Shown in pieces: positions 18,972-54,104 of a DNA stretch of 64,000 nt. The stretch's first letter is position 1. Every line of letters begins with the position of its first letter. Under the pieces are notes generated by a model, which was not told the origin of the DNA, searched no databases, and was given only the letters and a program-made list of their open reading frames with translations. A program made the position numbers and the translations under genes. The stretch lies in the sequence record PZ445530.1, one strand, 5' to 3'. The stretch comes from a phage.

Positions 18972-19087
18972 CAACCAAGGATAAGCCCCGTACCGATAAG
19001 GCGCGCCGGGTTATGGTATGGCTTGAGATCATCGCCCTTGAAATATTGCTAGGCGTAGGGATGTACTTTATCGCTGTAAGTAACTAA
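18968..19087 (+). CDS. Small membrane peptide (39 aa)
   Basis: SD aggagg; hydrophobic WLEIIALEILLGVGMYFIAV. Confidence 0.3.
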   Translation: MTTKDKPRTDKARRVMVWLEIIALEILLGVGMYFIAVSN

Positions 19088-34148: not shown

Positions 34149-35195
34149 TTAAGCTTCTTCGACAATTCCTGCACCCAGGATTTTTTCATTGAGCTCTTTT
34201 GCTGTTTTAATAATATTGTCCACCAGACGCTTGCGAGTCTTATCTTTTACCTTAACCTCTTCACCGCCGTTCAGGGTTGTCTTCAATTGGGACAGAATGT
34301 CTTGAAGTTCAACGACAGAGAATCGCTGCAGATCTTCTGAGGTAATCTCACCTAAGGCAATCTTAATGGTCTCACCACTTTCCATCTGCAGATTTAGGAA
34401 CACAGTGTGAACATCACCTTTCGAACCAACCGCTTTCGCAGATTCAACAGCATGAACTAGCTCATCTAAAGAGGTGCACTGGTGAATCTCAGGAAGACCT
34501 GCTTCACCTAACACGCCTTCATCACCTTTTGCCAGAAGCTTTTTAGGTTTTTGTCCGTTCTGGATGCGCTGTATGTTACCTTCATCCAGAATGATGGCTC
34601 CAGTTCGAGCTGCCAGCTCCTCTCCGTCCAACCACACTTCACCACCAGCTGTGATGGATGCGATCTCATCTTCTGTCAGCACCCCACCGTAGTATTTTTC
34701 GATCAGGCGTTCAAAACGTTTTTTCCAGTAGCTGACCTGAGTATTCATGTTCACACCGTTACCATAAGTGCCACCTTGATAGTAGTGGAACATAAATTCT
34801 GTGTCCGGAGCCACAGTGCGTTCTTTACAACCCAGCCATAAGATTGTTCCCGCAGAGCAGCACATCCCTTCAGCATGTGCAACAACGCTTGCCTGAGACT
34901 CGCGGAATGCCTGCAGATAAGCCATTGCAATGTGCACGCAACCACCAGGGCTATTGATGATCACCCGAATGCTTTCTTCCGGCTGAGCCATACGGATCGT
35001 CTGCAGACGAGACATATGATCCTGCAGGTCTTCCAAATCGTCGATATAAAGAACGTGGTCAACAACAGGTGTTGGGTAGCTGTATGTTTCCATGATACCG
35101 CCCGGCATACCAAACATTTTATTACTCATAGGTTCGAAACCGTTCTGTTTTTCTTTCATGCCGTGTACCATGGTGCTGCGAGGTGTTAAATTCAT
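34149..35195 (-). CDS. ClpP-family serine protease with C-terminal extension
   Basis: ClpP-like INSPGG and catalytic-Ser region GMCCSAGT. Confidence 0.65.
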   Translation of the reverse strand: MNLTPRSTMVHGMKEKQNGFEPMSNKMFGMPGGIMETYSYPTPVVDHVLYIDDLEDLQDHMSRLQTIRMAQPEESIRVIINSPGGCVHIAMAYLQAFRESQASVVAHAEGMCCSAGTILWLGCKERTVAPDTEFMFHYYQGGTYGNGVNMNTQVSYWKKRFERLIEKYYGGVLTEDEIASITAGGEVWLDGEELAARTGAIILDEGNIQRIQNGQKPKKLLAKGDEGVLGEAGLPEIHQCTSLDELVHAVESAKAVGSKGDVHTVFLNLQMESGETIKIALGEITSEDLQRFSVVELQDILSQLKTTLNGGEEVKVKDKTRKRLVDNIIKTAKELNEKILGAGIVEEA

Positions 35196-35255
35196 GAGAA
35201 ATCCTTAATATTGGAAGTTGAAAGCTATTTATTTAAACCTGATTCACATTTACCT

Positions 35256-35627
35256 TTATTTAGCAATCACTATGGAATACTTACGATTGTCAGAAGCATC
35301 ACAACTCAATGATTGCCAGTCTACCACATACCACGTATCATTGTCAACAATTACTTTATCGCCTGTTCTGTAGCAAGTGCTGCTTTCAATAATTCGAGAC
35401 TCGATAAAGAATCTGTGTCGGCGCTCACGTAGCAACGCTAAGTTAATTATATTACCACCGCTGTCCTTGGTCCACACATTCTTGGATCCTTTATTTGCCA
35501 AAATTGTCTCGCCGTTATAGACAAACAGGCAGTATATTTTATTCAATCTCTCTTGTATTGTAGCCATACTGTCCTTCTCTTTGTTTTGTCCGATAATAAT
35601 ATCTAAAGCTTGCCTATTTGTCAACAA
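35256..35627 (-). CDS. hypothetical protein
   Basis: ORF. Confidence 0.4.
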   Translation of the reverse strand: MLTNRQALDIIIGQNKEKDSMATIQERLNKIYCLFVYNGETILANKGSKNVWTKDSGGNIINLALLRERRHRFFIESRIIESSTCYRTGDKVIVDNDTWYVVDWQSLSCDASDNRKYSIVIAK

Positions 35628-35668
35628 CTGTTTTAGATATTTAAGGGTGGAATAACCACCCTTCTATA

Positions 35669-36457
35669 TTACTCGGAAACAGGGGTCCAAATATGATTTG
35701 CACGATCCTCAATAAGATTGAGTGCGATCTGACGACCCAACCCGGAACGAACGACATCGTCTGGACTATCAAAGCTGATCATTCCAACCTCAGGATCTGG
35801 ATGACGAGTAAAGAAATCCGTCACCCATGCAAGTCCAGATTTACCAGGGATGTCACGTTGGCTATTATCCCCCATAATTACAAGGGTGGCCTGATCAGAG
35901 ATCCTTGTGATAATTGACAACATTTCTTCAGGGTTAGTTTGCTGTGCCTCGTCAATCAGGACAAAGCATCGCTCATCGAAACTACGACCACGAATGCTTT
36001 CAACTTCACAAATCTCGATACGGCTGTTCTGACCGTCTCCCAGCATTGCGGCAAAAGCACCTTTGCCAACACGGCGACAAATCGTGTCCATCATGCTTCG
36101 AAGATAGGGCCACAGTTTCTGCATTGCATTTCCAGGTTTAAATCCTGAAGTCTTCCCTGTCTGAACGTAAGGGCGTGCAACAATGATCTTATCAATCTCG
36201 TTCTTACGCAGAAGATCACCTGCATATGCAGATGCCATGAATGTCTTACCGGATCCAAACACACCGTTTACAATAATAATCTTACGTGACCCTAGATAAT
36301 CAAGGTACTTTTGCTGCTTTTTATTCATTGGTCGGAGAGCTGGAGCGGTGTGCTCTCTTTCGTCAGCAAATTTCTCAGCAGCCTTACGCAGGCGATCAGA
36401 TTTGCGAGCCTCTCTAGCTTCATCACGCATGCGTTTTGTTTCTTTAGCTCGACCCAT
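35669..36457 (-). CDS. phoH: PhoH-like ATPase
   Basis: Walker A GVFGSGKTF; Walker B-like FVLIDEAQ; typical PhoH length. Confidence 0.85.
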   Translation of the reverse strand: MGRAKETKRMRDEAREARKSDRLRKAAEKFADEREHTAPALRPMNKKQQKYLDYLGSRKIIIVNGVFGSGKTFMASAYAGDLLRKNEIDKIIVARPYVQTGKTSGFKPGNAMQKLWPYLRSMMDTICRRVGKGAFAAMLGDGQNSRIEICEVESIRGRSFDERCFVLIDEAQQTNPEEMLSIITRISDQATLVIMGDNSQRDIPGKSGLAWVTDFFTRHPDPEVGMISFDSPDDVVRSGLGRQIALNLIEDRANHIWTPVSE

Positions 36458-36495
36458 GTTGGGACTCCTTTCAGATTGAGATGTGCCAAGTACTT

Positions 36496-36846
36496 TTACT
36501 GCAACAGTTTTTCAATAGCCGCTTCCATGCTGCTTGCAACAGCCTGAACTCGGATATTCATCTCTTCTTGGTGGATCAGCTCCTTAAGCTCTTTAATGGT
36601 AAATTCTTTAGAGAAACCTTCCACCATAATCTTGTGCAAGGCTTCTTGCGTGTCTACTTGCAAGAACTTTTCCAGTTTGTTGGCAGAGGCTTCTAAATCA
36701 GCCCGAATACGAGGGTCATCTGTGCGATTCAGCATTAGGCGTAAGCCATCAAGATTAGTAGAAATAGCATCTGCATGTTGAGTAACTAACCGTGGCAAAA
36801 TGAGATCTACAACCTTATTAGCCAAATCGATACGTTCTTGTGTCAC
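36496..36846 (-). CDS. hypothetical protein
   Basis: ORF; GTG start overlaps upstream stop (GTGA). Confidence 0.45.
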   Translation of the reverse strand: MTQERIDLANKVVDLILPRLVTQHADAISTNLDGLRLMLNRTDDPRIRADLEASANKLEKFLQVDTQEALHKIMVEGFSKEFTIKELKELIHQEEMNIRVQAVASSMEAAIEKLLQ

Positions 36847-36956
36847 TGTTGCACCCCCTCTTCATCTTCATGATGTTTCTTTTCACGCTTGTGTTTTTTC
36901 TTAAGCTCAAGCGCAATCTCTTTCTTGTACGCCTTCTTCAAGGCTTTTTTAGCCAT
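36843..36956 (-). CDS. Small basic protein (37 aa)
   Basis: SD gaggagg 6 nt upstream; Lys-rich MAKKALKKAYKK. Confidence 0.35.
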   Translation of the reverse strand: MAKKALKKAYKKEIALELKKKHKREKKHHEDEEGVQQ

Positions 36957-37020
36957 TTGGCACCTCCTCTGCTTTCATTTTACGATAATTATACCTATCT
37001 ACACCAAGCTTTGTCAACAA

Positions 37021-37494
37021 CTAGTCTACCTGAACCCAACCGCCTGCTACTTTTTTAAACATTCTTTGGTTATCGCTGCCTCGGAACGGTTTCTTGGTTG
37101 GTAAATCTTTTACATACTTACCGTCAATGATGATATCAGCCAGTTTAAGAACATCACTAGAGATATGGTCAAATGTGAACCCAGTATATACAAGAATAGT
37201 TTTCTTGTCACCAAATTTTTCCTTAATTTTCTCCATCAGGCTAATAATACCTGGCTCATTATAGTATGCTAAGGGTTCTCCACCCAGCAGAGAGATACCG
37301 CACACAGACGGGTTATCCAGATCTGACAAGATTTTTTGCAAATCTTCTTCAGTGAACTCCCTCCCCTTATCTTTTGACCAAAATGCCTGATTAAAGCAAC
37401 CAGGGCAAGCGTGTGGGCACCCAGATACCCACAAGGCAGTTCTAATACCTGGCCCTTCTGTGTAAGATACTTCTGTGTATCCGACAATGTTCAT
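37021..37494 (-). CDS. nrdG: Anaerobic ribonucleotide reductase activating protein
   Basis: Radical-SAM CPHACPGC motif; adjacent to nrdD. Confidence 0.8.
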   Translation of the reverse strand: MNIVGYTEVSYTEGPGIRTALWVSGCPHACPGCFNQAFWSKDKGREFTEEDLQKILSDLDNPSVCGISLLGGEPLAYYNEPGIISLMEKIKEKFGDKKTILVYTGFTFDHISSDVLKLADIIIDGKYVKDLPTKKPFRGSDNQRMFKKVAGGWVQVD

Positions 37495-37523
37495 AGATAC
37501 TCCGTATCACATTTAGGGCAATG

Positions 37524-37607
37524 TCAAATAAAATCGTCTAGTGCCTTGCACCAACGAAGATTGCAACGACAACCACACTTGCAAATTTTATAAATACCTG
37601 TAGACAT
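37524..37607 (-). CDS. Cys-rich micro-ORF (27 aa) between nrdD and nrdG
   Basis: Strong SD aggagg 6 nt before ATG; sequence MSTGIYKICKCGCRCNLRWCK. Confidence 0.35.
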   Translation of the reverse strand: MSTGIYKICKCGCRCNLRWCKALDDFI

Positions 37608-37670
37608 ACTGTACCTCCTAGCCCACTGTGTGTCAATAATATGCCACATCCTTGTGGCTTTTGTCAAGTA

Positions 37671-39794
37671 TCAGCAACTACAACTTCCATAGTGCTTAAC
37701 TCGCTCGATAACTTCCGCTTGCTTACCTTTATTGTAAGGACGGGAGTTAGGACTGGAAAGGTATCCAGACACTCTTCGGATCACTGAGATATATTGTTCA
37801 TCGTGGCATCCGCACGCAGGGCAGCAGAACCCTTTAGCTGTTGCACTGAACTCACCAGAGAAACCACACTTGAGACATTTATCTACAGGTTGGTTAATAC
37901 CAAAATACATAATGTGTTTATACCCGAAGTCAACAAGAGCCTCTAAAGCATCCAGGTTGTTTTTCAGGTTAGGTGTCTCTACGTATCCGATGTTGCCACC
38001 AGAGGAGATCATAGCAAAACCTTCCTCATACTCCCACTTATCAAAAGGAGAGCTATTTATCCATACTGGCTGATGGAAACTGTTGGTGAGATATTCATGC
38101 TCGTGCTTCAACACTTCCGGATATTCACGATCCAGACAGGTTGCAGCTTTATAGCATAGACTCTCAGAAGGAGTGCCGTACAAGCTAAACGCTAGTCTAC
38201 TTTCCTTCTTGTATCGCTCACAAGCATCTCTCATGTGCTGAAGGATTCCAAGAGCTAAAGCCTTGTCACCCTCTCTACCCAAAATCTGACAGGTTTCATA
38301 CACACCAATATACCCAATACTGATGGAAGCGTACCCGTCATAGAAGAGTTTATCAATACTCTCTTCAGGATCCAGGCGAGCAAGAGCTCCTTCACACCAC
38401 ATGATGGGGTTCTGCCCTGCCTTTGTTCCTTTTAGACGGTTAACCCTTACAAGGTGAGCCTCGTATGCAAGATCCAAGTATTCGTCAAGAACTGCAAAGA
38501 AATCAACACCTTCCGTCTTAGCTTTTGCCGCAATCATTGGCAGGTTAAGGCTAACAACGCCTAAGTTAAATCTGCCAAGGTATTTCTCCTCGCCTGTTTC
38601 CAAGTCATTGTATTTGCTAAGAAAACTCCTGCAACCCATGCTAGTTACTTTGCCATCTGTCGAGCCTGTCACTTTTCTATTTAGTGGTACAGATACGAAG
38701 TCAGGATAGATACGTTCTGCACAGCATTCCAGAGCTAATCGTTTCAAATCATAGTTAGGATCCCCAGGGTTCATGTTGACACCCTCTTCCAGGAAGAACA
38801 GCACTTTAGGGAACACAGGTGTGATACGTTCTTCACCAAGACCCATTTTGTGGACTTTCAAGTAGTTTTTGGTAATCATTCTACCAAAGACCGAGGTATC
38901 CAGCCCTAAACTTAATGTTATGAATGGAGTTTGCCCGTTGACAGAGGTTAACGTATTGATTTGATAGAGCAAAGTCTGCATGCTGTCAAATACGTCTTTA
39001 TCTGTCATTTGCATTGCAACAGTCTCAGCATCTGGCAACCAATGTTCCTGGCAAAATTTAAGGTTCTTCTCATAAGTTGCTTCAGCATATTGTGCCAGAT
39101 AATGATCAATATGGCTCATAGTCTGACCACCATATTGAGCACTAGCTACCGCACTAGAGATTTGGCTAAGGATTGTTGTTGCAACCCCTATTGACTTCGG
39201 CTTACTGACATGGGCGTTACCAATGTTGAATCCGTTTTCCAACATATCTGGATAATTTACCAAACAACAGTTTGTTAACGGACTGATCAAGTAGTCAAGA
39301 TCATGCACATGGATGAATCCTTTATTGTGCTCTTCGGAGACACGGTCTGGCAGGATCTGTGTTGATGCAAGGTGTTTGCTAAGAATACCTGCAAGCAGGT
39401 CGCGATGAGTGTGTACATGATTAGTAGGCTTATTTGCGTTTTCTTTTGTAAATTCATCACAAGTTCGATCCAAGAAGCCACTAATATCTGCAAGCAGTTT
39501 TCCACCTGCCTCTCTGTTATTATCTCTTGTCTGTCTATACTGGATGTATTCTCTGGCTGCACATTTTAAACCCATATCCATAAGAGCATCTTCAACAAGG
39601 ATATGGATATTTTTTACAGAGATCGTGCACTGGTCGGTTGGTAGATTGTTAGCAACAACTTCATTAACTGCACAAGCTATCCGGTAAGCTTCTTCTTCAG
39701 TATGTCCAGACTCAAGTAAGGCGGACTCTGCCGCCTTGATCACCTTAATTCCGTTATAAAACTCTTCTCTACCGTCCCGTTTTACAACTTTCAC
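37671..39794 (-). CDS. nrdD: Anaerobic ribonucleoside-triphosphate reductase
   Basis: C-terminal glycyl-radical motif RVSGY; C-terminal Zn ribbon CLKCG..CPACG; about 700 aa. Confidence 0.9.
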   Translation of the reverse strand: MKVVKRDGREEFYNGIKVIKAAESALLESGHTEEEAYRIACAVNEVVANNLPTDQCTISVKNIHILVEDALMDMGLKCAAREYIQYRQTRDNNREAGGKLLADISGFLDRTCDEFTKENANKPTNHVHTHRDLLAGILSKHLASTQILPDRVSEEHNKGFIHVHDLDYLISPLTNCCLVNYPDMLENGFNIGNAHVSKPKSIGVATTILSQISSAVASAQYGGQTMSHIDHYLAQYAEATYEKNLKFCQEHWLPDAETVAMQMTDKDVFDSMQTLLYQINTLTSVNGQTPFITLSLGLDTSVFGRMITKNYLKVHKMGLGEERITPVFPKVLFFLEEGVNMNPGDPNYDLKRLALECCAERIYPDFVSVPLNRKVTGSTDGKVTSMGCRSFLSKYNDLETGEEKYLGRFNLGVVSLNLPMIAAKAKTEGVDFFAVLDEYLDLAYEAHLVRVNRLKGTKAGQNPIMWCEGALARLDPEESIDKLFYDGYASISIGYIGVYETCQILGREGDKALALGILQHMRDACERYKKESRLAFSLYGTPSESLCYKAATCLDREYPEVLKHEHEYLTNSFHQPVWINSSPFDKWEYEEGFAMISSGGNIGYVETPNLKNNLDALEALVDFGYKHIMYFGINQPVDKCLKCGFSGEFSATAKGFCCPACGCHDEQYISVIRRVSGYLSSPNSRPYNKGKQAEVIERVKHYGSCSC

Positions 39795-40069
39795 TTTTTC
39801 TCTCCAAAACCATTCTTAACAAAAGAGATGAAATCGTCTGCACCGCCTATATGGACACTGTCAAGATCGCTTTCTAAGAAGATCTGCGGCAACGTTCTGG
39901 GGACGATTGGACTACACTTCTCAATAAGCTCTTCTTTTGTGTAGCCCTCGCCAAGTGTCTTATATACAAAAGGCAGACCTTTGCTGATTGCAAATTCTTT
40001 TGCTCTGACACAATGTGGGCAGTTATCCTTACCGTAAATGATGATGAAAAAAGATTTTTCGCAGCTCAT
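39791..40069 (-). CDS. nrdH: Glutaredoxin-like protein (NrdH-like)
   Basis: Redox motif CPHC near N-terminus; about 90 aa; between nrdB and nrdD. Confidence 0.7.
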   Translation of the reverse strand: MSCEKSFFIIIYGKDNCPHCVRAKEFAISKGLPFVYKTLGEGYTKEELIEKCSPIVPRTLPQIFLESDLDSVHIGGADDFISFVKNGFGEKK

Positions 40070-40072
40070 ATA

Positions 40073-41161
40073 TTAAAACTCCCAAATTTCTTCTTCAGCG
40101 TCGTTAACAGTTGTGTTGACGCGGTAGTCAGTGTTCGACATTTCTTGGTTCGCCGTCTGTTGCAATGAAGGTTTCATCCACACCTGCATAAACGGTAGCG
40201 GGTCCTTTGTTGGCGGCACAAAGTCTTTGTCGATGTCGTAGTAATCATAAATCGGTGAGCAGTTATAGTCAACCCACTCTTTAAGCAACGGTGAGTTAAG
40301 ACCTATAATCGCTCTTCCTTCGCTGAAAATATAGTCACTCCAGCCGTACTCTTTGGTTCGTACTTCATCAAGAATCTCTTTTAACTCCCCCTTTATCTCA
40401 AGGAAGCTTTTCTCCCATGCGGGATCATTAAGCAAGATATCAATGATGGCAAAATCACCTTTCGAATGTAGCATTTCGTCAAGCATGATTTTTTGAACAA
40501 GCTGCGCCACCTGAACAAAGATACCCTGTTCAGCTACTGCGAAAGTGCATGCAAAACTTGCAATAAACTCAATACTTTCCAGAGCTAAAAGTGCAAAAAG
40601 CGCTCTAAGAATGCATTTCCGCACAACATCTTCTTCAACACTAGAAGGATCCAGTCGGTATTTTGCACCAATAACCTCAAGCTCTTGCATGTATTTGACA
40701 ATAACTCCGGATCTGCTCAGAACGTTTTGGTTTTCCTGAATCTCTTCTATAATCTCACGGGCATTAGGGAGGCATTGTCTAACAATCTCTGAGTAAGTTA
40801 GTGCGTGAAGAACTTCAATCTCTGACTGTTTCATCAATAGAGTGAAAAGCTCACTATTAGTGATGAATGGTGAAAAGAGGCAGATGATCGATCTTGCCGC
40901 AACGCTATCAGCCTCCCATTGCCACATCAAGGTCTGCACCATCACGTCATAAGTTGACTTTGAGCATGTTACAAAATCTGAAATAGATTGCGACAAATCC
41001 ACTTCATCCTCTGCCCAATCTTGCTCTTTTTGTTTTTTGTATAGTTCAAACAGTTGTGGATATTTTTTGTTGATAGAGTCGTACATACCCATTTGCTGTC
41101 CCAGAAACAGCGGATAGTCACCAGTTTTATGAGCGGTGTTCTCAGCATTAAATACAGCCAT
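40073..41161 (-). CDS. nrdB: Ribonucleotide reductase class Ia small subunit
   Basis: N-terminus resembles E. coli NrdB; start moved to MAVFNAEN with SD agaggtag; next to nrdA. Confidence 0.85.
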   Translation of the reverse strand: MAVFNAENTAHKTGDYPLFLGQQMGMYDSINKKYPQLFELYKKQKEQDWAEDEVDLSQSISDFVTCSKSTYDVMVQTLMWQWEADSVAARSIICLFSPFITNSELFTLLMKQSEIEVLHALTYSEIVRQCLPNAREIIEEIQENQNVLSRSGVIVKYMQELEVIGAKYRLDPSSVEEDVVRKCILRALFALLALESIEFIASFACTFAVAEQGIFVQVAQLVQKIMLDEMLHSKGDFAIIDILLNDPAWEKSFLEIKGELKEILDEVRTKEYGWSDYIFSEGRAIIGLNSPLLKEWVDYNCSPIYDYYDIDKDFVPPTKDPLPFMQVWMKPSLQQTANQEMSNTDYRVNTTVNDAEEEIWEF

Positions 41162-41199
41162 TATTCTACCTCTAAAATGGGGCCGAAGCCCCTTTAAAA

Positions 41200-43515
41200 T
41201 TATAGTGCACAGCTTTCGCAATACGGATCTTCAACTGAACTATCTGCAATCAAAGGATAGTTCTTTCTGGTTTCATCTTCAGCCTGTTTCTTGGCATGAA
41301 GTTCCTCTGCCAAGGAGTCACCAGCACCAACCCTAGAGTTTAAATAATACCATGTCTTCATCCCGAATTTAGTGGCACGGATAAGGTACCCTAACTGCTC
41401 CTTCATTGAAATTTTACCATCTTTCAACTTGGTGTAGTCTATGTATAAATCCGCGCTGATTGCCTGACCTGTGAATTTTTGAATCACGGCATACATATCG
41501 ATCATGTCGTTAGTATCAACGTCCCAAGCCGAGGTGTAATACTCTTTCAACTCATCATAGTCAGGAACGATAAACAGCACCTGCCCTTGTGGCGACTTTT
41601 TAAAGATAATGTGCTCACGGACAGGATAAACCCCGTTAGTGGTGTTTGTTGCCAGCGAAGAGCTTTCATTAGGCATATATGCTTCAAGAACGCTATTACG
41701 TAGCCCACCATTCTCAATGATTTCTTTACGTAACCCTTCCCAATCCTGTTTAAGAGAAGGATCTTTCACCACGCTATCGACCTCTTTGTTATAGGTGTCG
41801 ATTGGTAACCAACCTTCTGGATATTTTGTTTTATGCATCCACTCGCAGACACCACGCTCTTTTGCCAACCGTAAACTTGCCTTATGCAAGCTGTAGCTGT
41901 GAAGTTCTGCAAGATCGTGAACGAGCTGTTTACTTTCAGGAGACCCGTAAGTAACCTTGTGGCTGGCAATAAAATGTGCAACATTGGTAAGGCCAACCCC
42001 GATGGATCTGCGTTTTTTAACTGTGCTTTCCATATTTTCATACGGATATGTCATGATTTCCATAACATTGTCAATCATAAGCACCGTGTAGTATGCAACA
42101 TCCTCATACTCCTCTGGAGTAACCCTTCCAGCTACAAGAGATGACAGGAAGCACAATGCAACCTCTCCATCATCAGCATCGTACTTGAAGATATTACGCA
42201 TATCTGAATAGCCTTTTGTCGGGAGGGCTATTTCTGCACACAGGTTACTTGAATAGATCACATCTTTAAAAGGTGTATGTCTATTCATCTCATCTGTCCA
42301 GTATACATACAGCCTTCCCACCTCAGTACGCTGCGTGATCAGTTCAACAGCAAGATCTCTGGCTCGGATCCATGTTTTAGGAATACTGTCATCTTTAGCA
42401 ATACGCTCAACCTCTGCATCGAACTCCTCCATAGACATGGTGAAGATACCCTCATGCAGTTGAGGAGCGTGCTTATAAGAAACAAGCATCCAATCTAAAT
42501 TCTTAGCCACACGGTTGATAAACGACCTATTAATACCGATGGAGTAGTCCATGGTGTTGATTCTTTTTGAAGCAACAGTCATAGGGTTTCTCAAACGGAT
42601 TAGCTCATCAATCTGCGGGTCCAGTGCAAGGAATGATACTGTTGCAGAACCGCCACGTGATTGTTGTCTGTTCTCCTTAACACCAGCATCAATACCTCGA
42701 TAATATGGAATCTTACCCATATGTTTAATAGTGTTACCACGAACACCATCGCCTGCAGATCTTGAGGATAAGTAGTAGCCGATACCTGCTTGGTTAACCG
42801 TCATTGTGTACGCAACTTCACGTGCCACACCAATAGATTTTGCTGTATCGTCAGCTTTTATTACACAACAAGATGCATACCCTGTCTTACCTGTGCGCAG
42901 CCCGTTTAAGTACGGTGTCGGGGCATTGATCTTTAAGTCGGACAGATAAGTGTATAATTTTACAACATCGTTGATACGACGTTCTTTCGGCATATTCTTC
43001 ATGACAGCCATTGCTATCCCCATAAACATCATCTGGGGAGATTCAAACAAGGTGTCTTTAAGAGTATCCTTGATCCCGTATTTGTCGCGAAACTGTTTAA
43101 GGACTGCATAGCCATAACCGAGATCTTTACTGTGGTCAATAACAGCGTCTAAAGTGTTTAGCTCGGTAAAGCTATAACCCATATCCTCCCAATAACCTTT
43201 CTCAACCATGTCATTGTAAAATGATGGTAAGGAAGGGATCTTTGTAAACCCTCCAAAAGCCTCTTTATAGATCTGACCAATAAGAACACGACCAGCCATA
43301 CGGGAATGTGCTTCGTCTTTACGGCTAACACAAGAGTCTATAATAGCTTGGTTAACTTCTTTGGTTGTACATCCATCATACAACCGCTTGTAGGCATCCA
43401 GTGCAATATGTGACCAATTGCCGTTACCATCGTCACCGAAAATAGCTGCCTTATTTAAACGTTCTGGATCGAATGCTACTTCACATCCGTTGCTTTTAAT
43501 TACCTTGGTGATCAA
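41200..43515 (-). CDS. nrdA: Ribonucleotide reductase class Ia large subunit
   Basis: N-terminal ATP-cone; C-terminal CESCAL redox cysteines; about 770 aa. Confidence 0.9.
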   Translation of the reverse strand: MITKVIKSNGCEVAFDPERLNKAAIFGDDGNGNWSHIALDAYKRLYDGCTTKEVNQAIIDSCVSRKDEAHSRMAGRVLIGQIYKEAFGGFTKIPSLPSFYNDMVEKGYWEDMGYSFTELNTLDAVIDHSKDLGYGYAVLKQFRDKYGIKDTLKDTLFESPQMMFMGIAMAVMKNMPKERRINDVVKLYTYLSDLKINAPTPYLNGLRTGKTGYASCCVIKADDTAKSIGVAREVAYTMTVNQAGIGYYLSSRSAGDGVRGNTIKHMGKIPYYRGIDAGVKENRQQSRGGSATVSFLALDPQIDELIRLRNPMTVASKRINTMDYSIGINRSFINRVAKNLDWMLVSYKHAPQLHEGIFTMSMEEFDAEVERIAKDDSIPKTWIRARDLAVELITQRTEVGRLYVYWTDEMNRHTPFKDVIYSSNLCAEIALPTKGYSDMRNIFKYDADDGEVALCFLSSLVAGRVTPEEYEDVAYYTVLMIDNVMEIMTYPYENMESTVKKRRSIGVGLTNVAHFIASHKVTYGSPESKQLVHDLAELHSYSLHKASLRLAKERGVCEWMHKTKYPEGWLPIDTYNKEVDSVVKDPSLKQDWEGLRKEIIENGGLRNSVLEAYMPNESSSLATNTTNGVYPVREHIIFKKSPQGQVLFIVPDYDELKEYYTSAWDVDTNDMIDMYAVIQKFTGQAISADLYIDYTKLKDGKISMKEQLGYLIRATKFGMKTWYYLNSRVGAGDSLAEELHAKKQAEDETRKNYPLIADSSVEDPYCESCAL

Positions 43516-43742
43516 TTTGCTTCCTCCACTTCACTAACGTATTTATCAAGGCAGGTATCAGTATCTTGCTGGATAAAAGTATCCTCTTCTACAGAGATAT
43601 TTATAATTTTACCTGTATACTCGTCATAATAGACATCATCATACATTTTAATATCGTTTGTCAGGCCATTGAACCAAAGCCAACCAACATACTCTGCCCG
43701 ACTTGCAAAACCAAGATCCTTCCACTTGGAGTTATGACTCAT
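43512..43742 (-). CDS. hypothetical protein
   Basis: Start moved to MSHNSKW with SD aaggtgg. Confidence 0.4.
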   Translation of the reverse strand: MSHNSKWKDLGFASRAEYVGWLWFNGLTNDIKMYDDVYYDEYTGKIINISVEEDTFIQQDTDTCLDKYVSEVEEAN

Positions 43743-43752
43743 CTTCACCACC

Positions 43753-44253
43753 TTAGCTTTCAATACCGAATAATTTTTCCAGGCGATGCAGATCTTCAAA
43801 ATTGAAAGGTTCATCAACAATATGAATATCTTCAGCCTTTTCAGATTGTTTTGTATACTTTCTTACATTAACACGATCCTCTACAGGGATATCATACGGG
43901 AGATCTTGAACAAGCATTGCCTCACCAGGTGCTTTATCTACATCTAAAATATCTACACCGTTATACATTTGTGGGTATCTAAAGTCTGCACGCATGACAC
44001 CAGCAAATACATCTGCCTTTCGATAATGTGTTGGCTTATTTTTGCATCGAACGTTTTTTCCACGAAGAACATCAATACTTTTTAAATCAAACCCTACGGC
44101 AAAGAGTGCAGCTCGGAGACCGTTTCGTGTGCGAACGTTAAACCCGGGGACGGTAGATAGAAAATCTAAAGTAACTGAAATAAATGTCTTTTTAGGAATC
44201 ATAACATTACTCATATCTGTCTCCATTTCTGGCTCACCAACAAAGTGAGCCAT
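43753..44253 (-). CDS. hypothetical protein
   Basis: ORF. Confidence 0.45.
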   Translation of the reverse strand: MAHFVGEPEMETDMSNVMIPKKTFISVTLDFLSTVPGFNVRTRNGLRAALFAVGFDLKSIDVLRGKNVRCKNKPTHYRKADVFAGVMRADFRYPQMYNGVDILDVDKAPGEAMLVQDLPYDIPVEDRVNVRKYTKQSEKAEDIHIVDEPFNFEDLHRLEKLFGIES

Positions 44254-44312
44254 TATTATAGATTATCTAATACTATTAGTCAACACAAAAGTTACCTATC
44301 GCTGTGATAGGA

Positions 44313-45296
44313 TTAACCTTTCACGAAGTGGTTATTAAGCAGTTGTCTGTGCTGAACCCACCCACAAAAGTTGGCAGACCAGAATTTACCATCACGGTCT
44401 TGATGGGTTACACCTTCCTGCCAAGTACTGATGTCTTGTGTGATTTCACATGAAGACAGGTAGTAGTTTAAACGTTCCATTGCATTATCGTGATCCATAG
44501 GTGTTGCCTGGTGCTCGTAAGGGCTTGCATGAATACGATCCCCACCAATCAATTTTTTAGCAACACTATCTGCCTTTTCAAACGTGCTGTCAATATTTCG
44601 ATAAGATACTTGTGCACAGCAACTAGCACTGATAGACAGAGCTTCTTTAGTATCGAGAATGCAAAGCTTTCCTTCTGTGTCACGTACAGCGTAGTTAAAC
44701 TCTCCGTCCAAATAAACGTGCTCTACATATGGGGTGTGCCATTGACCCGGTTTAAGGATTTCAGGAGTGCTATTCTCAAGAGCCTCCCACATACAATTAG
44801 CTAACATCTGAATCGTAGGATCCGCATCGTGCCAGCAACGGAGGTGGAAAAAATTATTCCACTCGGTGCTTGTTACAACTGTTTTCATGCGCTGGAACGG
44901 CTCCACTAAGCGGTTACATACTTGCTTATGGTAACCAGCAAGGGCGAACTTCTCTGCATGCCAAGCGGCGTTTTTTGCAGCTTCTTTCCAAAACTCTTCA
45001 GGAGTTAGCTCCATGTCAGTGTACTCTACACGGATCTTTTGATCGTGTTCCCCACCATCTTCCATTCCTCGCTTATTTACACCGAAGCGAACTGGCATTG
45101 CCGGATTCTCCACAATCTGTTGCAGCATCTTGCCGACAGGTACTGCACGGGAAGACATGGCGTTTCTGCTGAACACTCGGTGCGTCATAAGCTCTGAGTG
45201 AATAATTCGAGGATACTCTAGTTCAAAAGTGGTGATACGCTTACCTTTCTCGGAAATGCTGTCAGCAATAATCTTTGCAGTGCACAGTTTTAGCAT
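44313..45296 (-). CDS. thyX: Flavin-dependent thymidylate synthase (ThyX-like)
   Basis: ThyX-type signature variant THRVFSRNAMSSRA (RHR-x7-S pattern); location in nucleotide-metabolism cluster. Confidence 0.6.
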   Translation of the reverse strand: MLKLCTAKIIADSISEKGKRITTFELEYPRIIHSELMTHRVFSRNAMSSRAVPVGKMLQQIVENPAMPVRFGVNKRGMEDGGEHDQKIRVEYTDMELTPEEFWKEAAKNAAWHAEKFALAGYHKQVCNRLVEPFQRMKTVVTSTEWNNFFHLRCWHDADPTIQMLANCMWEALENSTPEILKPGQWHTPYVEHVYLDGEFNYAVRDTEGKLCILDTKEALSISASCCAQVSYRNIDSTFEKADSVAKKLIGGDRIHASPYEHQATPMDHDNAMERLNYYLSSCEITQDISTWQEGVTHQDRDGKFWSANFCGWVQHRQLLNNHFVKG

Positions 45297-45496
45297 TATT
45301 TAGCTCTCCTTGTTTTAATTTTGGAAATTTCGTCTGGGTTTATGTTGGCCTTAAATGCAAGGTATCTGTTGAACATGTCAGAGCACATATCTTGGGTGAT
45401 CCTAGAGGCATACACTAGCTTACCTCCTAGATCATACACCTCTAGCCAGTCACCATATCTGACTACAGGATCGCCACCTTTAGAACATCTGCCCAT
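45296..45496 (-). CDS. hypothetical protein
   Basis: ORF. Confidence 0.4.
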   Translation of the reverse strand: MGRCSKGGDPVVRYGDWLEVYDLGGKLVYASRITQDMCSDMFNRYLAFKANINPDEISKIKTRRAK

Positions 45497-45497
45497 T

Positions 45498-46091
45498 TCA
45501 AATACCTTCTAAAAATTTTCCTATTTTATACCAGCTATTAGCGGTATAGTCAACACTGACCTTTAACTCCTCGAATTGCTCATAAGGCGTATCTTTTAGG
45601 ATTTTAATAACTTCAGGTCGTGAAGCGAATTGGTTCAGGTATTCATGCCTGTCGTCAATTATAACATCTACAGCCACATTCCCTTTGAAATGTGTGGCGT
45701 AGAAGCCGTGGCCCTGGGTGTGGTCGTCCAGATCCATAAAATCACTGGTCCAACGCTTTAAGAACCTTGATTTAGATGCAAGGTGACCTTTCTTGCATAC
45801 CGAGATAAATGCAAGCTTGTGACCACGAGCCACCAAATCTTTCATAACCTCAATAGCCCCCTCTTCAGGCTTAAGGAAGTCGTAGAGGAACGGATCACTC
45901 CAGAAATCAAAAGGTCCTATGATGTTTTCTTTGGGACGATCAGGCCAATACTTTGACAGATCGTAATACATTAGCCCATTAGAAGGTTTAGCTACTGTCT
46001 TACTGGCTGGACCATACAAACGCTCCAACCACTCCCACCATGCTGTTCCTGAATCTACCAGTGTCAGATCTACATCAATTCCGATTAACAT
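45498..46091 (-). CDS. HAD-superfamily 5'(3')-deoxyribonucleotidase-like phosphatase
   Basis: HAD motif I IDVDLTL (DxDxT); downstream DVIIDDR motif. Confidence 0.6.
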   Translation of the reverse strand: MLIGIDVDLTLVDSGTAWWEWLERLYGPASKTVAKPSNGLMYYDLSKYWPDRPKENIIGPFDFWSDPFLYDFLKPEEGAIEVMKDLVARGHKLAFISVCKKGHLASKSRFLKRWTSDFMDLDDHTQGHGFYATHFKGNVAVDVIIDDRHEYLNQFASRPEVIKILKDTPYEQFEELKVSVDYTANSWYKIGKFLEGI

Positions 46092-46699
46092 TCTTCTTGG
46101 GCCTCTTTAACATCAATATACTTGCACACAATCTCCGATGCACACTCCCAAGGTGCACCTTCAGGGTTTACAACATCAAACTCAACCCCTTTTATTCCGT
46201 TCTTTTCCAGACTTAGATAGGTTCTGGAATCATTTCCCCAGTCATATCCTACACGGTGAATACGGAACAACAACAGATCTCCACCTGTGCTGTATGCGTA
46301 CTCGCTAAGGCATGCCAGCTCCTCTTTGAATCCCCCATCGGAGTAAACAATAACCCCTTTACCTTCAGGGAAATCTTTCTTCAAAGATGCGACTGCGGCT
46401 TTACCGAAAGCATCTTCACCAAAGATAGGTTTAATCAGATTTTCACTACAATGGATCATCCATTCTCGCGGAGAAACATGCTTGCCGTCTATCATTAAGA
46501 AAGGGCAAGGCTCTTCTTTGTAGTGGCGGTCATAAAGTGCATTCCAGAGTTGAGGAGTTACACCAGCTGCCTTAATTGCCACACTGAAGAGCATTTCCTT
46601 AACCTCACGGTGGTGTGAGTTAGGAATAGCTTCCAACAAGAGATCTGCAATGTGATCCTTACCACTGCTGGGTGGGGCGTTAAGAACAATAATATCCAT
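46085..46699 (-). CDS. Deoxynucleoside monophosphate kinase (T4 gp1-like)
   Basis: N-terminal P-loop IVLNAPPSSGKDHIAD resembling T4 dNMP kinase. Confidence 0.6.
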   Translation of the reverse strand: MDIIVLNAPPSSGKDHIADLLLEAIPNSHHREVKEMLFSVAIKAAGVTPQLWNALYDRHYKEEPCPFLMIDGKHVSPREWMIHCSENLIKPIFGEDAFGKAAVASLKKDFPEGKGVIVYSDGGFKEELACLSEYAYSTGGDLLLFRIHRVGYDWGNDSRTYLSLEKNGIKGVEFDVVNPEGAPWECASEIVCKYIDVKEAQEEC

Positions 46700-46902
46700 T
46701 AAAAACCTCCGTGGTATTCTTCAACTGCATCAATAATACTTTTACACTTATCTACCAGCTCGTTAGCCACTACAGCATCGTCTTCCCAAACAGCCTCCTC
46801 AATCTGATCAAGCAATGATCGCATCTTACTCATCATTTCTGGGATAAAGTTTTCTGAAAAGCTGTCTGGAATTGTTAACTCTAGTGTCATTTCGGTCTCC
46901 AA
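46699..46902 (-). CDS. hypothetical acidic protein
   Basis: ORF. Confidence 0.4.
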   Translation of the reverse strand: METEMTLELTIPDSFSENFIPEMMSKMRSLLDQIEEAVWEDDAVVANELVDKCKSIIDAVEEYHGGF

Positions 46903-46917
46903 TCATACTATGCGTTA

Positions 46918-47376
46918 TTAGAAGTTTGTTTTTACACGTCCCTTCTCATCAACCTCGTTGTTAGCTAAAAGCGTTACAAAGTCTGTGAAACGAACATGAA
47001 GAACCCTTTTCTTATCAAGGTATCCTAAAGCCACCCCTGAGAAATTTAGCATCAAAGGGGCTAAAGAAGCTCTGGCACTGAAATGCTGTTGTTCTACCCT
47101 TCCAACACCCTTAGTGTAGGATGGGTTAAGATTGTAAGTTCTGAATCCCAGTTTTGTTGGAGCTTTAGAATTAAAAACGACTTTATAGCGTTTCTTACTC
47201 AACTTATGCTCCAGGATAAGCATTCCCTTATCACCTTTGATAAGTTGAAAATCTGTAAAGTGCTCTTTTAAGACGAAAGGTAGTGCCAGTCCCATCGCCT
47301 GTCCTCTTTGTACCGCTGTCTCACCAAAAGCTTTTGCATCAGTAAGTTCTTTGGTCAAGTCTATGCTTTTGATCAT
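46918..47376 (-). CDS. hypothetical protein
   Basis: ORF; SD ggaga upstream. Confidence 0.45.
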   Translation of the reverse strand: MIKSIDLTKELTDAKAFGETAVQRGQAMGLALPFVLKEHFTDFQLIKGDKGMLILEHKLSKKRYKVVFNSKAPTKLGFRTYNLNPSYTKGVGRVEQQHFSARASLAPLMLNFSGVALGYLDKKRVLHVRFTDFVTLLANNEVDEKGRVKTNF

Positions 47377-48187
47377 ACCTGGTCTCCAAAATGTATTGTA
47401 GTTCTTTCTTACCTATACTCTTCATTCCAGCAGTCTTACCTGCTTCTTCTTGAAAAGAAGAATAGCATTCAGCAAACACTCTGTCAACACCGTTAACTAA
47501 AGATTTTATGAAATATGTTGATTCTTCAGATTTTGGGTCATCATCCCCCAATACTTTTCCAGCATTATACCCAACACGTCTTACACAGAAGTCGTAGTCA
47601 TCTGGTGTGCTAAAAGAAAATAACTTATTCTCTCCAATCTCTACAGGATCCCTATTGCACGCCTTTTTCTCCCAAATTTGGAAAACACATGGCACGTCAT
47701 AAGGTTTGCCATTAAGTAAAAACGAATTCTTAGGGCACCTTTCGCTGTAGACAAGGTGCATCGACATGTCCAGTTTGTTTGCAAAAAATATTTTTTCAAA
47801 TGTCCGTGGCAAGATGAAGGCTATAGCCCCTCCAAGCTCTAGCAATGATGCACAATGGTTAAAGAATTTGCAAGCTAAGGATGAATTCTTGCCAAATGGT
47901 GGGTTACCTATGAAGACATCTGCCTTGGGATGCACCTCCAAGAAGTTTGCCTGAATGCACGGTGTTGGTCCTTCAAATTCAGGATCTGGTACTAAATCGT
48001 ACGACAGTATCTCTGAAAATAGTTTTGAAAAAGAACCCCTTCCAGCAGAAGGCTCAACGTATGCACAATTCCCATACTTATCTTTTACTTTACCAACAAG
48101 ATATTCTGCATACTCAGGGTTTGTGTAGTATTTGTCGTTGGACTCTTTCTTGCTCAAAGTGCCTCCAAAAGGAAAAGGGAGGCGCAA
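47339..48187 (-). CDS. DNA N6-adenine methyltransferase (NPPF type)
   Basis: Catalytic motif FIGNPPFG. Confidence 0.6.
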   Translation of the reverse strand: MRLPFPFGGTLSKKESNDKYYTNPEYAEYLVGKVKDKYGNCAYVEPSAGRGSFSKLFSEILSYDLVPDPEFEGPTPCIQANFLEVHPKADVFIGNPPFGKNSSLACKFFNHCASLLELGGAIAFILPRTFEKIFFANKLDMSMHLVYSERCPKNSFLLNGKPYDVPCVFQIWEKKACNRDPVEIGENKLFSFSTPDDYDFCVRRVGYNAGKVLGDDDPKSEESTYFIKSLVNGVDRVFAECYSSFQEEAGKTAGMKSIGKKELQYILETRYDQKHRLDQRTY

Positions 48188-48202
48188 GCCTCCCTATAAT
48201 TG

Positions 48203-49186
48203 TTAGATTATCTGAATCAGGGTATTTTTCATTTCTTCTCTGGTGCGGATGTTGTTACGGTCACGAACAACAGATCCACAACCTTCGCAGCGGTATGTTT
48301 TAAATGCACTCAGTTGAGTATACGCCAAAGCTTCTTCCTCGTGAAGGTGTTCTCCACCACAGCGTGGGCAACGAACTTTTGGCTCCTCATCCTGGTAGTA
48401 CAATGACATGTTGGGGTGCTGCTTAGCAAACGGGCGAGCCAGCAAATACAGGCCTTCCAGAGATAGGATATCGCCAACATTGTACTCCCGCATCTGTTTA
48501 AACGCCTCAAGATCACCGTGAACACACTTGATCCACATTTCAAATGTGTGGTCAATCAGTTTCTGTCGGGCAAGTTGGAAGTATTTGCATGCATACTCCA
48601 AAGTGTTTGCATTCAAACGGAATGCCTTCTTGATCATTTTAAGGGTGTCAACCTCTTTGTAGGGGCTTGTTGGAGGCAATCCGTGAAATGCAAATCGTTG
48701 GTTGGCCCACCCACAGTCAAAACCTGAATTGTGGGCTACTGCGACATCACATTTATCCAGATAATACCACAAATCCTGAATCAATTCGAGATCATTGTGA
48801 ATATCCTCATCCCACATTTTGTAATCAGGAAGAGCGCAGTCAACCACACTAGGACTGTCTAACCACTTACCTGCGAAAGTTAGCATGTAGGGCATAATTT
48901 CAATACCGCAGGTTTGAATGTTGGTCTTATAGTGCCCAAAGAACCAGCCGTTTGTTGGAGATGTCTCTGTATCATACACCCAAACTTTAGCACCTTTGTG
49001 CTCTTCAAGGAAGCGCTCCGTTGCTTCTCCTACAATCTCTGACATATTCTCTTGTGCACGTTTAAGCTGTAGTCGGATCCAGCTCTCACGTGACTCACGG
49101 CCTAAAAATTCACGAGCAATTTGTCTATTAGTGTATCCCTGTTGCTTTAGTGTTAAAATTTGCTCAAGAGTTAACTTTGTCATCAT
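48203..49186 (-). CDS. DEDD-family 3'-5' exonuclease with N-terminal HTH and C-terminal Zn ribbon
   Basis: Exo motifs VYDTETS, AHNSGFD, YNVGD; HTH-like QQGYTNRQIAREF; CPRCG...CEGCG. Confidence 0.55.
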   Translation of the reverse strand: MMTKLTLEQILTLKQQGYTNRQIAREFLGRESRESWIRLQLKRAQENMSEIVGEATERFLEEHKGAKVWVYDTETSPTNGWFFGHYKTNIQTCGIEIMPYMLTFAGKWLDSPSVVDCALPDYKMWDEDIHNDLELIQDLWYYLDKCDVAVAHNSGFDCGWANQRFAFHGLPPTSPYKEVDTLKMIKKAFRLNANTLEYACKYFQLARQKLIDHTFEMWIKCVHGDLEAFKQMREYNVGDILSLEGLYLLARPFAKQHPNMSLYYQDEEPKVRCPRCGGEHLHEEEALAYTQLSAFKTYRCEGCGSVVRDRNNIRTREEMKNTLIQII

Positions 49187-53337: not shown

Positions 53338-53405
53338 GGTTAAACCCTCCCTAACATTGTATGAGGTAACAATACCACGTCCGTGTGGTCATGTCAATGA
53401 TACTG

Positions 53406-54104
53406 TTACAATCTTTCAGCAAGAGCCTTTGCGTAACACGCTTCAGCAGACTCTTTGGTGTCAAACCTGCCTAGCGTTTTTCCTCTGAAAGTTACTTTCC
53501 ATTTGCCCCTATCTGCTTCAAATCTGACACCTCTAGATTTATCCCTCCCTAAAGGCTGTCCACGATATTCCCTGACAAACGTGCCACTTTCAAAAGACTT
53601 TTGAGCAGCAAGGGCCTCTTCTAAGGTATCGTATTCTCCTAGGTCTTTCTTATAGTAATGACCTACCTTACCAAAAGCAGCATACCTTCCAGTTCTAGCA
53701 TGAAAATATACACCCAAGTGTCCAGTGTTAGATTTAGGTATCTTGCGTGCCAGGCATCCGTCATCTGCCGCCTTTTTTGCGTTTTCTTCTGGTGTTAACA
53801 GTTGTAGGTTTTCTATCCTGTCATCAGCAACACCATCGGAATAGAAAAGTGGCTTTATGTGATCAACTTCGTACCCTTCTGGAATTGGTCCATAATGCAT
53901 CTCCCACACCAATCTATGCCTGTAGTAATGCACGCCGCGATAGATTATATCCCTGTACCCGTCCATGTTAGTACATCCAGCCTCCTTTCCCATCAGTTGA
54001 GGTTTGTTTTTTGGTGGGGACTTCCAAAACAACCTTCCAGTGCCTGTATCGTATCTAAAGACACTCCACCAGTCAATCCCGTTACTCATCTGTAACAACT
54101 CCAC
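53406..54104 (-). CDS. HNH homing endonuclease with AP2-like DNA-binding repeats (free-standing)
   Basis: HNH motif EVDHIKPLFYSDGVADDRIENLQLLTPEEN; two AP2-like repeats. Confidence 0.8.
   Translation of the reverse strand: MELLQMSNGIDWWSVFRYDTGTGRLFWKSPPKNKPQLMGKEAGCTNMDGYRDIIYRGVHYYRHRLVWEMHYGPIPEGYEVDHIKPLFYSDGVADDRIENLQLLTPEENAKKAADDGCLARKIPKSNTGHLGVYFHARTGRYAAFGKVGHYYKKDLGEYDTLEEALAAQKSFESGTFVREYRGQPLGRDKSRGVRFEADRGKWKVTFRGKTLGRFDTKESAEACYAKALAERL

Follow-up and report, generated by a model that had tools for sequence, protein, structure and literature searches.

Bacteriophage T4 combines the genes of a class Ia and a class III ribonucleotide reductase (RNR) and of a phage redoxin (nrdA/nrdB/nrdC plus nrdD/nrdG) with those of a ThyA-type thymidylate synthase, a dihydrofolate reductase (DHFR), a dCMP hydroxymethylase and a dCTPase. 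For the phage rV5, the genome paper lists aerobic and anaerobic RNR genes (subunits gp109–112 and gp117) together with a thymidylate synthase gene, gp106 (Kropinski et al., 2013; PMC3606486). We analyzed the nucleotide-metabolism cluster at positions 37,021–46,699 of a 64,000-nucleotide stretch of phage DNA (sequence record PZ445530.1; the whole stretch is called here the window), in which class Ia and class III reductases and a phage redoxin are encoded, as in T4. Unlike T4, this phage has a thymidylate synthase-like protein of the ThyX type, and T4-type ThyA, DHFR, dCMP hydroxymethylase and dCTPase are not annotated in its relative JeffSchatz (annotation read at positions 1–100,000 and 104,722–135,630). 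An earlier note on this DNA had named both RNRs, a T4 gp1-like deoxynucleoside monophosphate (dNMP) kinase, a ThyX-like protein, a HAD-superfamily nucleotidase and a MazG-like protein; profile, motif and fold searches agree with this list, and every named gene lies on the minus strand where it had been placed (Table 1).

We interpret the region as a deoxynucleoside triphosphate (dNTP)-supply module of an rV5-like coliphage that makes canonical dNTPs, and the small cysteine-rich gene located between nrdD and nrdG as a separate, horizontally exchanged element that is inactivated or strongly reduced in this phage, an interpretation to which we give a probability of roughly 0.8. The module is ordinary and was already described for rV5; it constitutes a textbook dNTP-supply block with no sign of new DNA chemistry, and the result is mainly negative. 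Going modestly beyond the literature that we searched are the rearranged topology and altered motif of a large ThyX subfamily and the mobile Cys-rich gene.

In a megablast comparison with a phage collection, the stretch 37,021–46,699 matched 151 records, 116 of which cover at least 80% of it. The top matches were the Escherichia phages rV5_ev147, rV5_ev156, ECO111 5-P, EmilHeitz and JeffSchatz (98.7–98.9% identity) and, since these are rV5-like phages, we assign the window on nucleotide identity to a Vequintavirus, an rV5-like myovirus of Escherichia coli. The modules of rV5 and other members of the genus have the same genes in the same order, at 98–99% identity. The distantly related phage PVP-SE1 of Salmonella keeps this order as well (kinase, HAD, small ORFs, ThyX, unknowns, NrdA, NrdB, Grx, NrdD and NrdG), which argues that the block is a conserved module and, together with the 116 records, that the clustering is not due to chance. 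All genes from approximately 26 to 58 kb are carried by the minus strand, as observed in the GC skew and in the map of open reading frames (ORFs).

The hallmarks of class III RNRs (RVxG[FWY], a C-terminal Cys4 and a CX3CX2C activase) are all present in NrdD and NrdG. NrdD contains the Pfam domains ATP-cone, NRDD and Gly_radical, and its translation shows the RVSGY glycyl-radical motif and the C-terminal Cys4, while NrdG matches Pfam Fer4_12 (E 9.6e-43) and has a cluster motif that reads CPHACPGC. The nrdD gene of the window has no intron, in contrast to that of some relatives, whose intron holds a homing endonuclease; in several of them (e.g., EmilHeitz, locus L093, 651–3358) nrdD is a joined coding sequence split by an intron-like insertion of ~800 nt that encodes the endonuclease. 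The motifs of class Ia RNRs were likewise identified, in NrdA (lgN and lgC domains in Pfam, the NxCxE active-site motif as SNLCAEI and a C-terminal CESC) and in NrdB (the ExxH…Y and ExxH iron/tyrosyl-radical motifs, with the start codon taken as annotated in JeffSchatz); the species-specific equivalogs NF006578 and NF006576 scored under their cut-offs. The redoxin gene had been labeled nrdH, a name that we would replace by grx, as the protein is a glutaredoxin: it has a CPHC active site and not one of the CVQC type, its best NCBIfam models are GrxA (52.9 bits, under its cut-off) and Grx3, and no NrdH model was among the NCBIfam matches at E ≤ 0.01. The glutaredoxin is presumed to be the reductant of the class Ia enzyme.

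The ThyX-like protein has the length of 327 residues and the THR in place of RHR that had been pointed out before, T38-H39-R40 being read directly from the sequence. Pfam Thy1 (PF02511) matches it with 38 bits (cut-off 24.8), with profile positions 60–191 only, which fall on residues 23–179. A structural model based on 32 homologs has a mean predicted local distance difference test (pLDDT) of 81.6 and a predicted template modeling score (pTM) of 0.82; the top 50 Foldseek matches of this model were all ThyX or PolB, and the assignment to the ThyX fold, as predicted by the model, is secure. Since searches of the PDB sequences with the protein and with its family profile (132 sequences: that of the window plus 131 representatives of 50%-identity clusters) gave nothing significant, the relationship is drawn from the fold and from profile–profile comparison. 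Against the TM0449 sequence (verified as identical to 1KQ4), profile residues 10–180 align to residues 49–201 (E 2.5e-5) and residues 213–325 align, independently, to residues 10–118 (E 1.9e-5). The convincing piece of this second match is ISASCCAQVSY…HASPYEH against LSAVRAARVSF…HETPFEH, the alpha1–alpha2 segment that contains H53 and E58.

In segments, residues 20–180 of the ThyX-like protein correspond to TM0449 60–201, and residues 213–270 to the N-terminal H53 segment of TM0449, after which a second, degenerate T-H-x-D-R…S motif is present at 297–307. In line with this, the model starts with a beta hairpin that leads straight into the THR helix, with no alpha1–alpha2 helices. The segment order, as deduced from these alignments, is non-canonical: whereas in canonical ThyX the alpha1–alpha2/H53 segment stands before the core, in this long form it stands after it, in a circular-permutation-like arrangement. 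The protein is ~110 residues longer than canonical ThyX and has a beta-rich insert at 179–214. The simplest origin would be a tandem duplication after which copy 1 lost its N-terminal helices and copy 2 its C-terminal helical part, and the relocated segment may still occupy its canonical spatial position. An extended ThyX motif reportedly defined by Ulmer et al. in 2008 has a conserved His (H53 in TM0449) 25–27 residues before RHR; here the equivalent H256 lies 217 residues after THR. Our literature searches found no paper describing a segment rearrangement or circular permutation of ThyX, or a long-form member.

The motif that in canonical ThyX is RHRX7S reads T38-H39-R40-x7-S48, with the H, R, S and next R retained. 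Because Thr occupies the first position in 128 of the 132 diverse representatives (Arg in 2), THR is a family signature and not a local degeneration. The window protein has in common with TM0449 (1KQ4/1O26) and PBCV-1 A674R (4FZB) the H-R…S-x-R residues, R174, N169 and the H53/E58 segment. The retained positions (TM0449 residue first, window residue second, number out of 132 in parentheses) are H79=H39 (132), R80=R40 (108), S83=S43 (120), N85=N45 (125), S88=S48 (131), R90=R50 (132), N169=N148 (131), R174=R153 (132), H53=H256 (132) and E58=E261 (125). R147 of TM0449 aligns to N128, and the neighboring R129, present in 131 of 132, is its likely equivalent. R30, H187, P189 and R317 are new invariant residues of the long form. 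Two homologs contain inteins, one with Intein_splicing and HNH domains directly after THR (P0215, residues 46–373), and the other of the LAGLIDADG type inside HASPFEH, between HA and SPFEH (P0221, residues 256–593). Inteins are characteristically located in active-site motifs, and their insertion exactly at THR and at HASPFEH marks both motifs as functionally critical.

This long form is abundant. A word-indexed search retrieved 7,442 proteins at E ≤ 0.001, and an exhaustive search of 50%-identity representatives retrieved 5,520 clusters at E ≤ 0.001, of which 3,383 remained at E ≤ 1e-30, with a typical length of 290–345 residues. When one genome was scanned for each GTDB species, 75 long-form loci emerged, many of which are probably phage contigs binned into metagenome-assembled genomes. 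Around 25 of the 75 come from species representatives of Eremiobacterota/Vulcanimicrobiota, several on chromosomes of 2–5 Mb, and others were found in Leptolyngbya PCC 7375, Sphingopyxis, Sphingobium, Ancylobacter and Mesorhizobium. The bacterial long forms share MTHRxFSRNAASSRA, HKQ..NR.LEP, WH.P, an ARCA..SY segment, H.SP.EH and Q.R. In the Eremiobacterota chromosome OY969579.1 (locus L043, 5992–6843), a 283-residue ThyX is encoded between an ilvB-like thiamine pyrophosphate enzyme plus ilvC and an M48 peptidase plus hydantoinase A/B, and this ilvB/ilvC neighborhood is a housekeeping context; further loci with the long form are L064, L081, L039 and L085. Since the gene is inherited across the phylum in such a context, the Eremiobacterota long form would most simply be the lineage's own thymidylate synthase. 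We consider it much more likely that the long form is an undescribed topological class of ThyX, arisen through duplication and circular permutation with a re-wired phosphate/FAD site, widespread in phages and serving as the chromosomal ThyX of Eremiobacterota, than that it makes a modified pyrimidine. Thousands of phage annotations as "thymidylate synthase" rest on this rearranged, Thr-for-Arg form, in which an active site built by three subunits would have to tolerate permutation and for which the PDB profile search retrieved no solved structure.

The dNMP kinase is supported as T4 gp1-like by a predicted structure and by profile comparison, since its top fold match is 1DEK and a global alignment to T4 gp1 is collinear. 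The two first Foldseek ranks of its AlphaFold (AF2) model (pLDDT 91.7) in the PDB are the 1DEK chains (E 1.4e-6), and global hhalign against the T4 gp1 sequence, verified as 100% identical to 1DEK, covers 185 columns with 24% identity (E 2.4e-4), matching the SGKD P-loop, YDR, S-x-R-x-x-M, the D-x5-E segment and the N-D-S/T lid; local hhalign detected the P-loop alone. No match was obtained in Pfam, NCBIfam or PDB sequence searches and, since the latter gave nothing significant, the relationship is again one of fold and of profile–profile comparison. A weak profile match to an Argonaute PIWI segment (E 5e-4) was set aside as a chance or Rossmann-like similarity, the fold search ranking T4 gp1 first. 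T4 gp1 is thus the best structural match and belongs to the same PHROG family, but the identity is 24% and the kinase of the window has no insert at approximately T4 gp1 residues 90–128. T4 gp1 serves 5-hydroxymethyl-dCMP (hm-dCMP); there is no sign of such a role for the kinase of the window.

The HAD phosphatase has the DVDLT (DxDxT) catalytic motif at residues 6–10; phrog_420 has no assigned function, and a PDB sequence search found no significant solved relative. Outside the cluster, the ORF at 56,605, mentioned earlier as possibly MazG-like, matches a nucleotide pyrophosphohydrolase family in PHROG, with no Pfam family and no PDB sequence match.

Family and fold assignments, catalytic motifs, synteny and the rearranged ThyX segment order are observed, and from them we infer the substrates of ThyX, kinase and phosphatase. 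With oxygen, the class Ia NrdA/NrdB, reduced via the phage glutaredoxin, would convert ribonucleoside diphosphates to deoxynucleoside diphosphates (dNDPs), while NrdD, activated by the radical S-adenosylmethionine (SAM) protein NrdG, would reduce ribonucleoside triphosphates when oxygen is lacking, as in the gut. Long-form ThyX would methylate dUMP to dTMP with FAD, NADPH and methylene-tetrahydrofolate and, since ThyX yields tetrahydrofolate and not dihydrofolate, no phage DHFR would be needed. The gp1-type kinase would phosphorylate dNMPs, coming from ThyX and probably also from the breakdown of host DNA, to dNDPs, and trimming or sanitizing of the nucleotide pools would probably fall to the NT5C-like HAD phosphatase and to the MazG-like enzyme encoded at a distance.

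That these dNTPs are canonical is suggested by several lines of evidence. Known thymidine hypermodification starts with a ThyA-family dUMP hydroxymethylase, a kinase acting on 5-hydroxymethyluracil (5-hmU) in DNA (5-HMUDK) and aGPT-Pplase (PMC8989533). In the annotation of JeffSchatz, over the positions given above, we found no ThyA-type enzyme, DHFR, dCMP deaminase or dCTPase/dUTPase, and no 5-hmU DNA kinase, aGPT-Pplase, DNA glycosyltransferase or hydroxymethylase. Genes of the known thymidine/cytosine hypermodification systems (ThyA-type hydroxymethylase, 5-HMUDK, aGPT-Pplase/AADT, glucosyltransferases) were also absent from the Pfam and PHROG matches in the scanned stretches of the window, in which many hypothetical genes were not individually profiled. 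The Vequintavirinae were reported as "exceptionally susceptible" to restriction–modification (RM) systems, in a study whose phage collection includes JeffSchatz, 98.7% identical here (PMC8594841), and rV5 DNA was digested by XbaI (PMC3606486). Among the DNA methyltransferases annotated in JeffSchatz are several N6-adenine enzymes and a Dcm-like C5-cytosine enzyme. A putative N6-adenine methyltransferase is also encoded in the window (47,339–48,187), such phages being still reported as RM-sensitive. Neither dNMP kinases nor NT5C-type nucleotidases are diagnostic of modified DNA.

Some observations weigh against our interpretation. The ThyX-like protein scores 39.5 bits on the equivalog model TIGR02170, under the cut-off of 87.9, and in comparison with TM0449 the residues R74 (S/A), R78, the first Arg of RHR (T), E86 (A/S), Y91 (A), N163 (T/S), R165 (T) and H178 (D/A) are changed. 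Among these are residues that we take to bind FAD or phosphate in canonical ThyX and, because several of them differ, the activity and product given above are predictions. For long-form ThyX proteins, neither the literature nor the PDB profile search yielded any biochemical data or structure. The NT5C assignment of the phosphatase (PF06941) is borderline (27.1 bits, cut-off 24.8), and for the absence of hypermodification genes we depend on the deposited annotation of a relative whose genes are mostly labeled "hypothetical". Finally, RM sensitivity and cutting by XbaI are compatible with a simple base substitution, such as 5-hydroxymethyldeoxyuridine (5-hmdU), since DNA of this type is cut by many enzymes.

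The low TIGR02170 score and the loss of the first Arg of RHR and of several other canonical residues could also be explained if the ThyX-like protein were catalytically dead or repurposed, as a nucleotide- or flavin-binding regulator or as a scaffold of a dNTP complex, the phage depending on the ThyA that E. coli possesses. We regard this as unlikely, since 131 or 132 of the 132 representatives have each of H39, S48, R50, R129, R153, H256 and H262, whose canonical equivalents contact dUMP and sit near the flavin, since inteins target both motifs, as is typical of the active sites of essential enzymes, and since the gene is retained in single copy on chromosomes across a bacterial phylum.

In the earlier note, the Cys-rich micro-ORF that separates nrdD from nrdG was described as a 27-residue ORF with a strong Shine–Dalgarno sequence and as a candidate metal-binding accessory peptide. 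Its coordinates, its 27 codons and the AGGAGG located 7 nt upstream of the ATG are as described then. The ORF is, however, a truncated allele: it matches positions 1–27 of the 38 of the phrog_20137 profile, and codon 28 (37,524–37,526), TGG in 12 of 12 relatives examined, is TGA in the window only. The ancestral frame spans 37,491–37,607, with a stop codon that overlaps the nrdG start (ATGA). Copies of 38 codons are present in JeffSchatz, naam, APCEc02, rV5_ev147, FFH2, V18, S127 BCL3, FV3 and EcoIv14a_Aya, and copies of 36 codons in the SP6-like podophage ACG-C91 and in two metagenome contigs. All full-length copies keep seven cysteines (C-x-C-x-C-x-C-x4-C-x9-C-x2-C), and the ratio of nonsynonymous to synonymous differences (pN/pS) between homologs is 0.11–0.20 (Nei-Gojobori counting). 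From this ratio and the conserved cysteines, we conclude that the gene is a real protein-coding gene under purifying selection, and the full-length protein probably binds metal. The nonsense mutation deletes the terminal C-P-x-C, the last CxxC, and the gene of the window is predicted to be inactivated or strongly reduced by it. The base after the TGA is C, which makes for weak termination in E. coli, and one may speculate that readthrough by tRNA-Trp would restore the ancestral residue; selenocysteine insertion at this codon found no support. The resemblance of the micro-ORF to the C-terminal zinc ribbon of NrdD (CxKCG…CPxC) is generic to zinc ribbons, and the idea that it is a copy of it is unsupported.

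The small gene is carried by phages of different families. In ACG-C91 and the two related contigs it is encoded between a DUF3310 or "nucleotide kinase" gene and a DNA ligase gene, with no RNR gene within 3–4 kb on either side; the 36-residue homolog of ACG-C91 (locus L002, 3009–3116; NC_019403.1, ~18870–18977), located between gp29 and the ligase-like gp28, is unannotated, as is the gene in rV5_ev147, FV3, Gotham and slur16, that is, in at least five of the records examined. The ACG-C91 copy is 83.6% identical in nucleotides to a myovirus copy, which indicates that this 36–38-residue, seven-Cys protein has probably moved horizontally between unrelated coliphage families. A protein search with the 38-residue sequence plus two in-frame upstream residues retrieved 6 clusters, and exact-match scans of IMG/VR returned zero for both the TGA and the TGG allele, which is uninformative. 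The content of the nrdD–nrdG spacer differs among relatives: naam and APCEc02 have a 78-residue gene between the small gene and nrdG, and naam (locus L003, 2617–4106) has in addition a 310-residue T5orf172/treble-clef zinc-finger endonuclease-like gene between nrdD and the small gene. The spacer is a hot spot for extra genes or mobile elements.

The location between nrdD and nrdG, the strong Shine–Dalgarno sequence, the ATGA overlap with nrdG in relatives and the seven conserved cysteines would be those of a dedicated metal-binding accessory of the anaerobic RNR, the second half of the earlier proposal. The PHROG family is even labeled "ribonucleotide reductase", although this label apparently stems from a position-based name in the FFH2 record. 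Metal binding by the small protein remains plausible, but the role as an accessory of NrdD/NrdG is improbable. The neighbors of the gene differ and it is absent from PVP-SE1, where nrdD and nrdG overlap directly, which argues that it is not RNR-specific; the 78-residue gene that separates it from nrdG in naam and APCEc02, its place before a DNA ligase gene in the SP6-like podophages and its truncation inside the otherwise intact module of the window also contradict such a role.

We thus retain the reading as a canonical dNTP-supply module, and the remaining proposal, a non-canonical pyrimidine pathway suggested in the earlier note, fares worst. In this proposal the THR-type ThyX traps the exocyclic methylene with water, or uses dCMP, the gp1-like kinase phosphorylates the resulting 5-substituted pyrimidine (e.g., 5-hmdUMP) and the NT5C-like and MazG-like enzymes remove the canonical competitor, the level or kind of the modification being such that the restriction enzymes tested can still cut. 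The deviating FAD/phosphate-site residues, the hm-dCMP activity of T4 gp1 and the adjacency of the kinase, phosphatase and ThyX genes, syntenic across genera, would fit it, and the exocyclic methylene through which ThyX catalysis proceeds is in principle trappable by a nucleophile (PMC8989533). We nevertheless consider it very improbable, since the THR architecture is a subfamily trait common to ~5,500 50%-identity clusters, including the Eremiobacterota genes beside ilvB/ilvC and those of Leptolyngbya, Sphingopyxis and Mesorhizobium, and since the RM sensitivity, the XbaI digestion, the lack of hypermodification enzymes in the JeffSchatz annotation over the positions read and its Dcm-like methyltransferase, which argues for a free cytosine C5, all speak against it. 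To our knowledge, no modified thymine of this kind occurs in cellular DNA.

Table 1. Features of the nucleotide-metabolism cluster and of the MazG-like candidate outside it, with positions in the window.
Feature	Positions	Strand	Supporting match or observation
nrdG, class III RNR activase (radical SAM), 157 aa	37021-37494	-	TIGR02491, 148.6 bits (cut-off 126.1)
Small Cys-rich gene, truncated 27-aa allele of a conserved 36-38-aa protein (phrog_20137)	37524-37607	-	phrog_20137, E 2.3e-20
nrdD, class III (anaerobic) ribonucleoside-triphosphate reductase, 707 aa, GTG start, uninterrupted	37671-39794	-	NF006732, 821 bits (cut-off 657)
Glutaredoxin (grx), CPHC active site, 92 aa	39791-40069	-	Pfam Glutaredoxin, 34.1 bits
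nrdB, class Ia RNR beta subunit, 362 aa	40073-41161	-	Pfam Ribonuc_red_sm, 104.9 bits; NF006576 best match
nrdA, class Ia RNR alpha subunit, 771 aa, TTG start	41200-43515	-	TIGR02506, 499.9 bits (cut-off 341)
Conserved protein of unknown function, 76 aa (phrog_5488)	43512-43742	-	phrog_5488, E 6.4e-42
Conserved protein of unknown function, 166 aa (phrog_5557)	43753-44253	-	phrog_5557, E 8.3e-75
Sigma-70-like promoter match, 11/12 consensus	44255-44283	-	In the gap that separates the ThyX gene from that of the 166-aa protein; consensus match only
Long-form rearranged ThyX-family protein, 327 aa	44313-45296	-	T38-H39-R40...S48-x-R50; HASPYEH at 256-262
Conserved protein of unknown function, 66 aa (phrog_4903)	45296-45496	-	phrog_4903, E 5.6e-35
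HAD-superfamily phosphatase, NT5C-like (putative 5'-deoxynucleotidase), 197 aa	45498-46091	-	Pfam NT5C PF06941; phrog_420
T4 gp1-type deoxynucleoside monophosphate kinase, 204 aa	46085-46699	-	phrog_139, E 3.7e-44
MazG-like nucleotide pyrophosphohydrolase candidate, 237 aa, outside the cluster	56605-57318	-	phrog_671, E 1.9e-21

Three further conserved proteins are encoded within the cluster. The syntenic PVP-SE1 ortholog of the 76-residue protein has a DUF8047 domain, PVP-SE1 has a 64-residue gene in the place of the 66-residue one, and the 166-residue protein has no match in Pfam or NCBIfam. Promoter-like sites in the region are no more frequent than in shuffled sequences, and an Rfam scan of 35,000–49,000 detected no RNA family. 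A perfect sigma-70 consensus (TTGACA, 18 nt, TATAAT) is present on the minus strand at 36,988–37,017, directly downstream of the nrdG stop codon and before the next small genes.

Outside the cluster, we observed two further differences from JeffSchatz. At ~57,853–57,861 around 2.1 kb are missing from the window, comprising the 5' part of a sirtuin gene, a hypothetical gene, an RNA ligase and a polynucleotide kinase, and a 177-residue Sir2 fragment without the N-terminal NAD-binding part is left at 57,332–57,865. At 53,402–54,193, beside the endolysin gene, a segment of 792 nt replaces 93 nt of JeffSchatz and contains, on the minus strand (53,406–54,104), an ORF for a homing-endonuclease-like protein of 232 residues with HNH_3 and AP2 domains.

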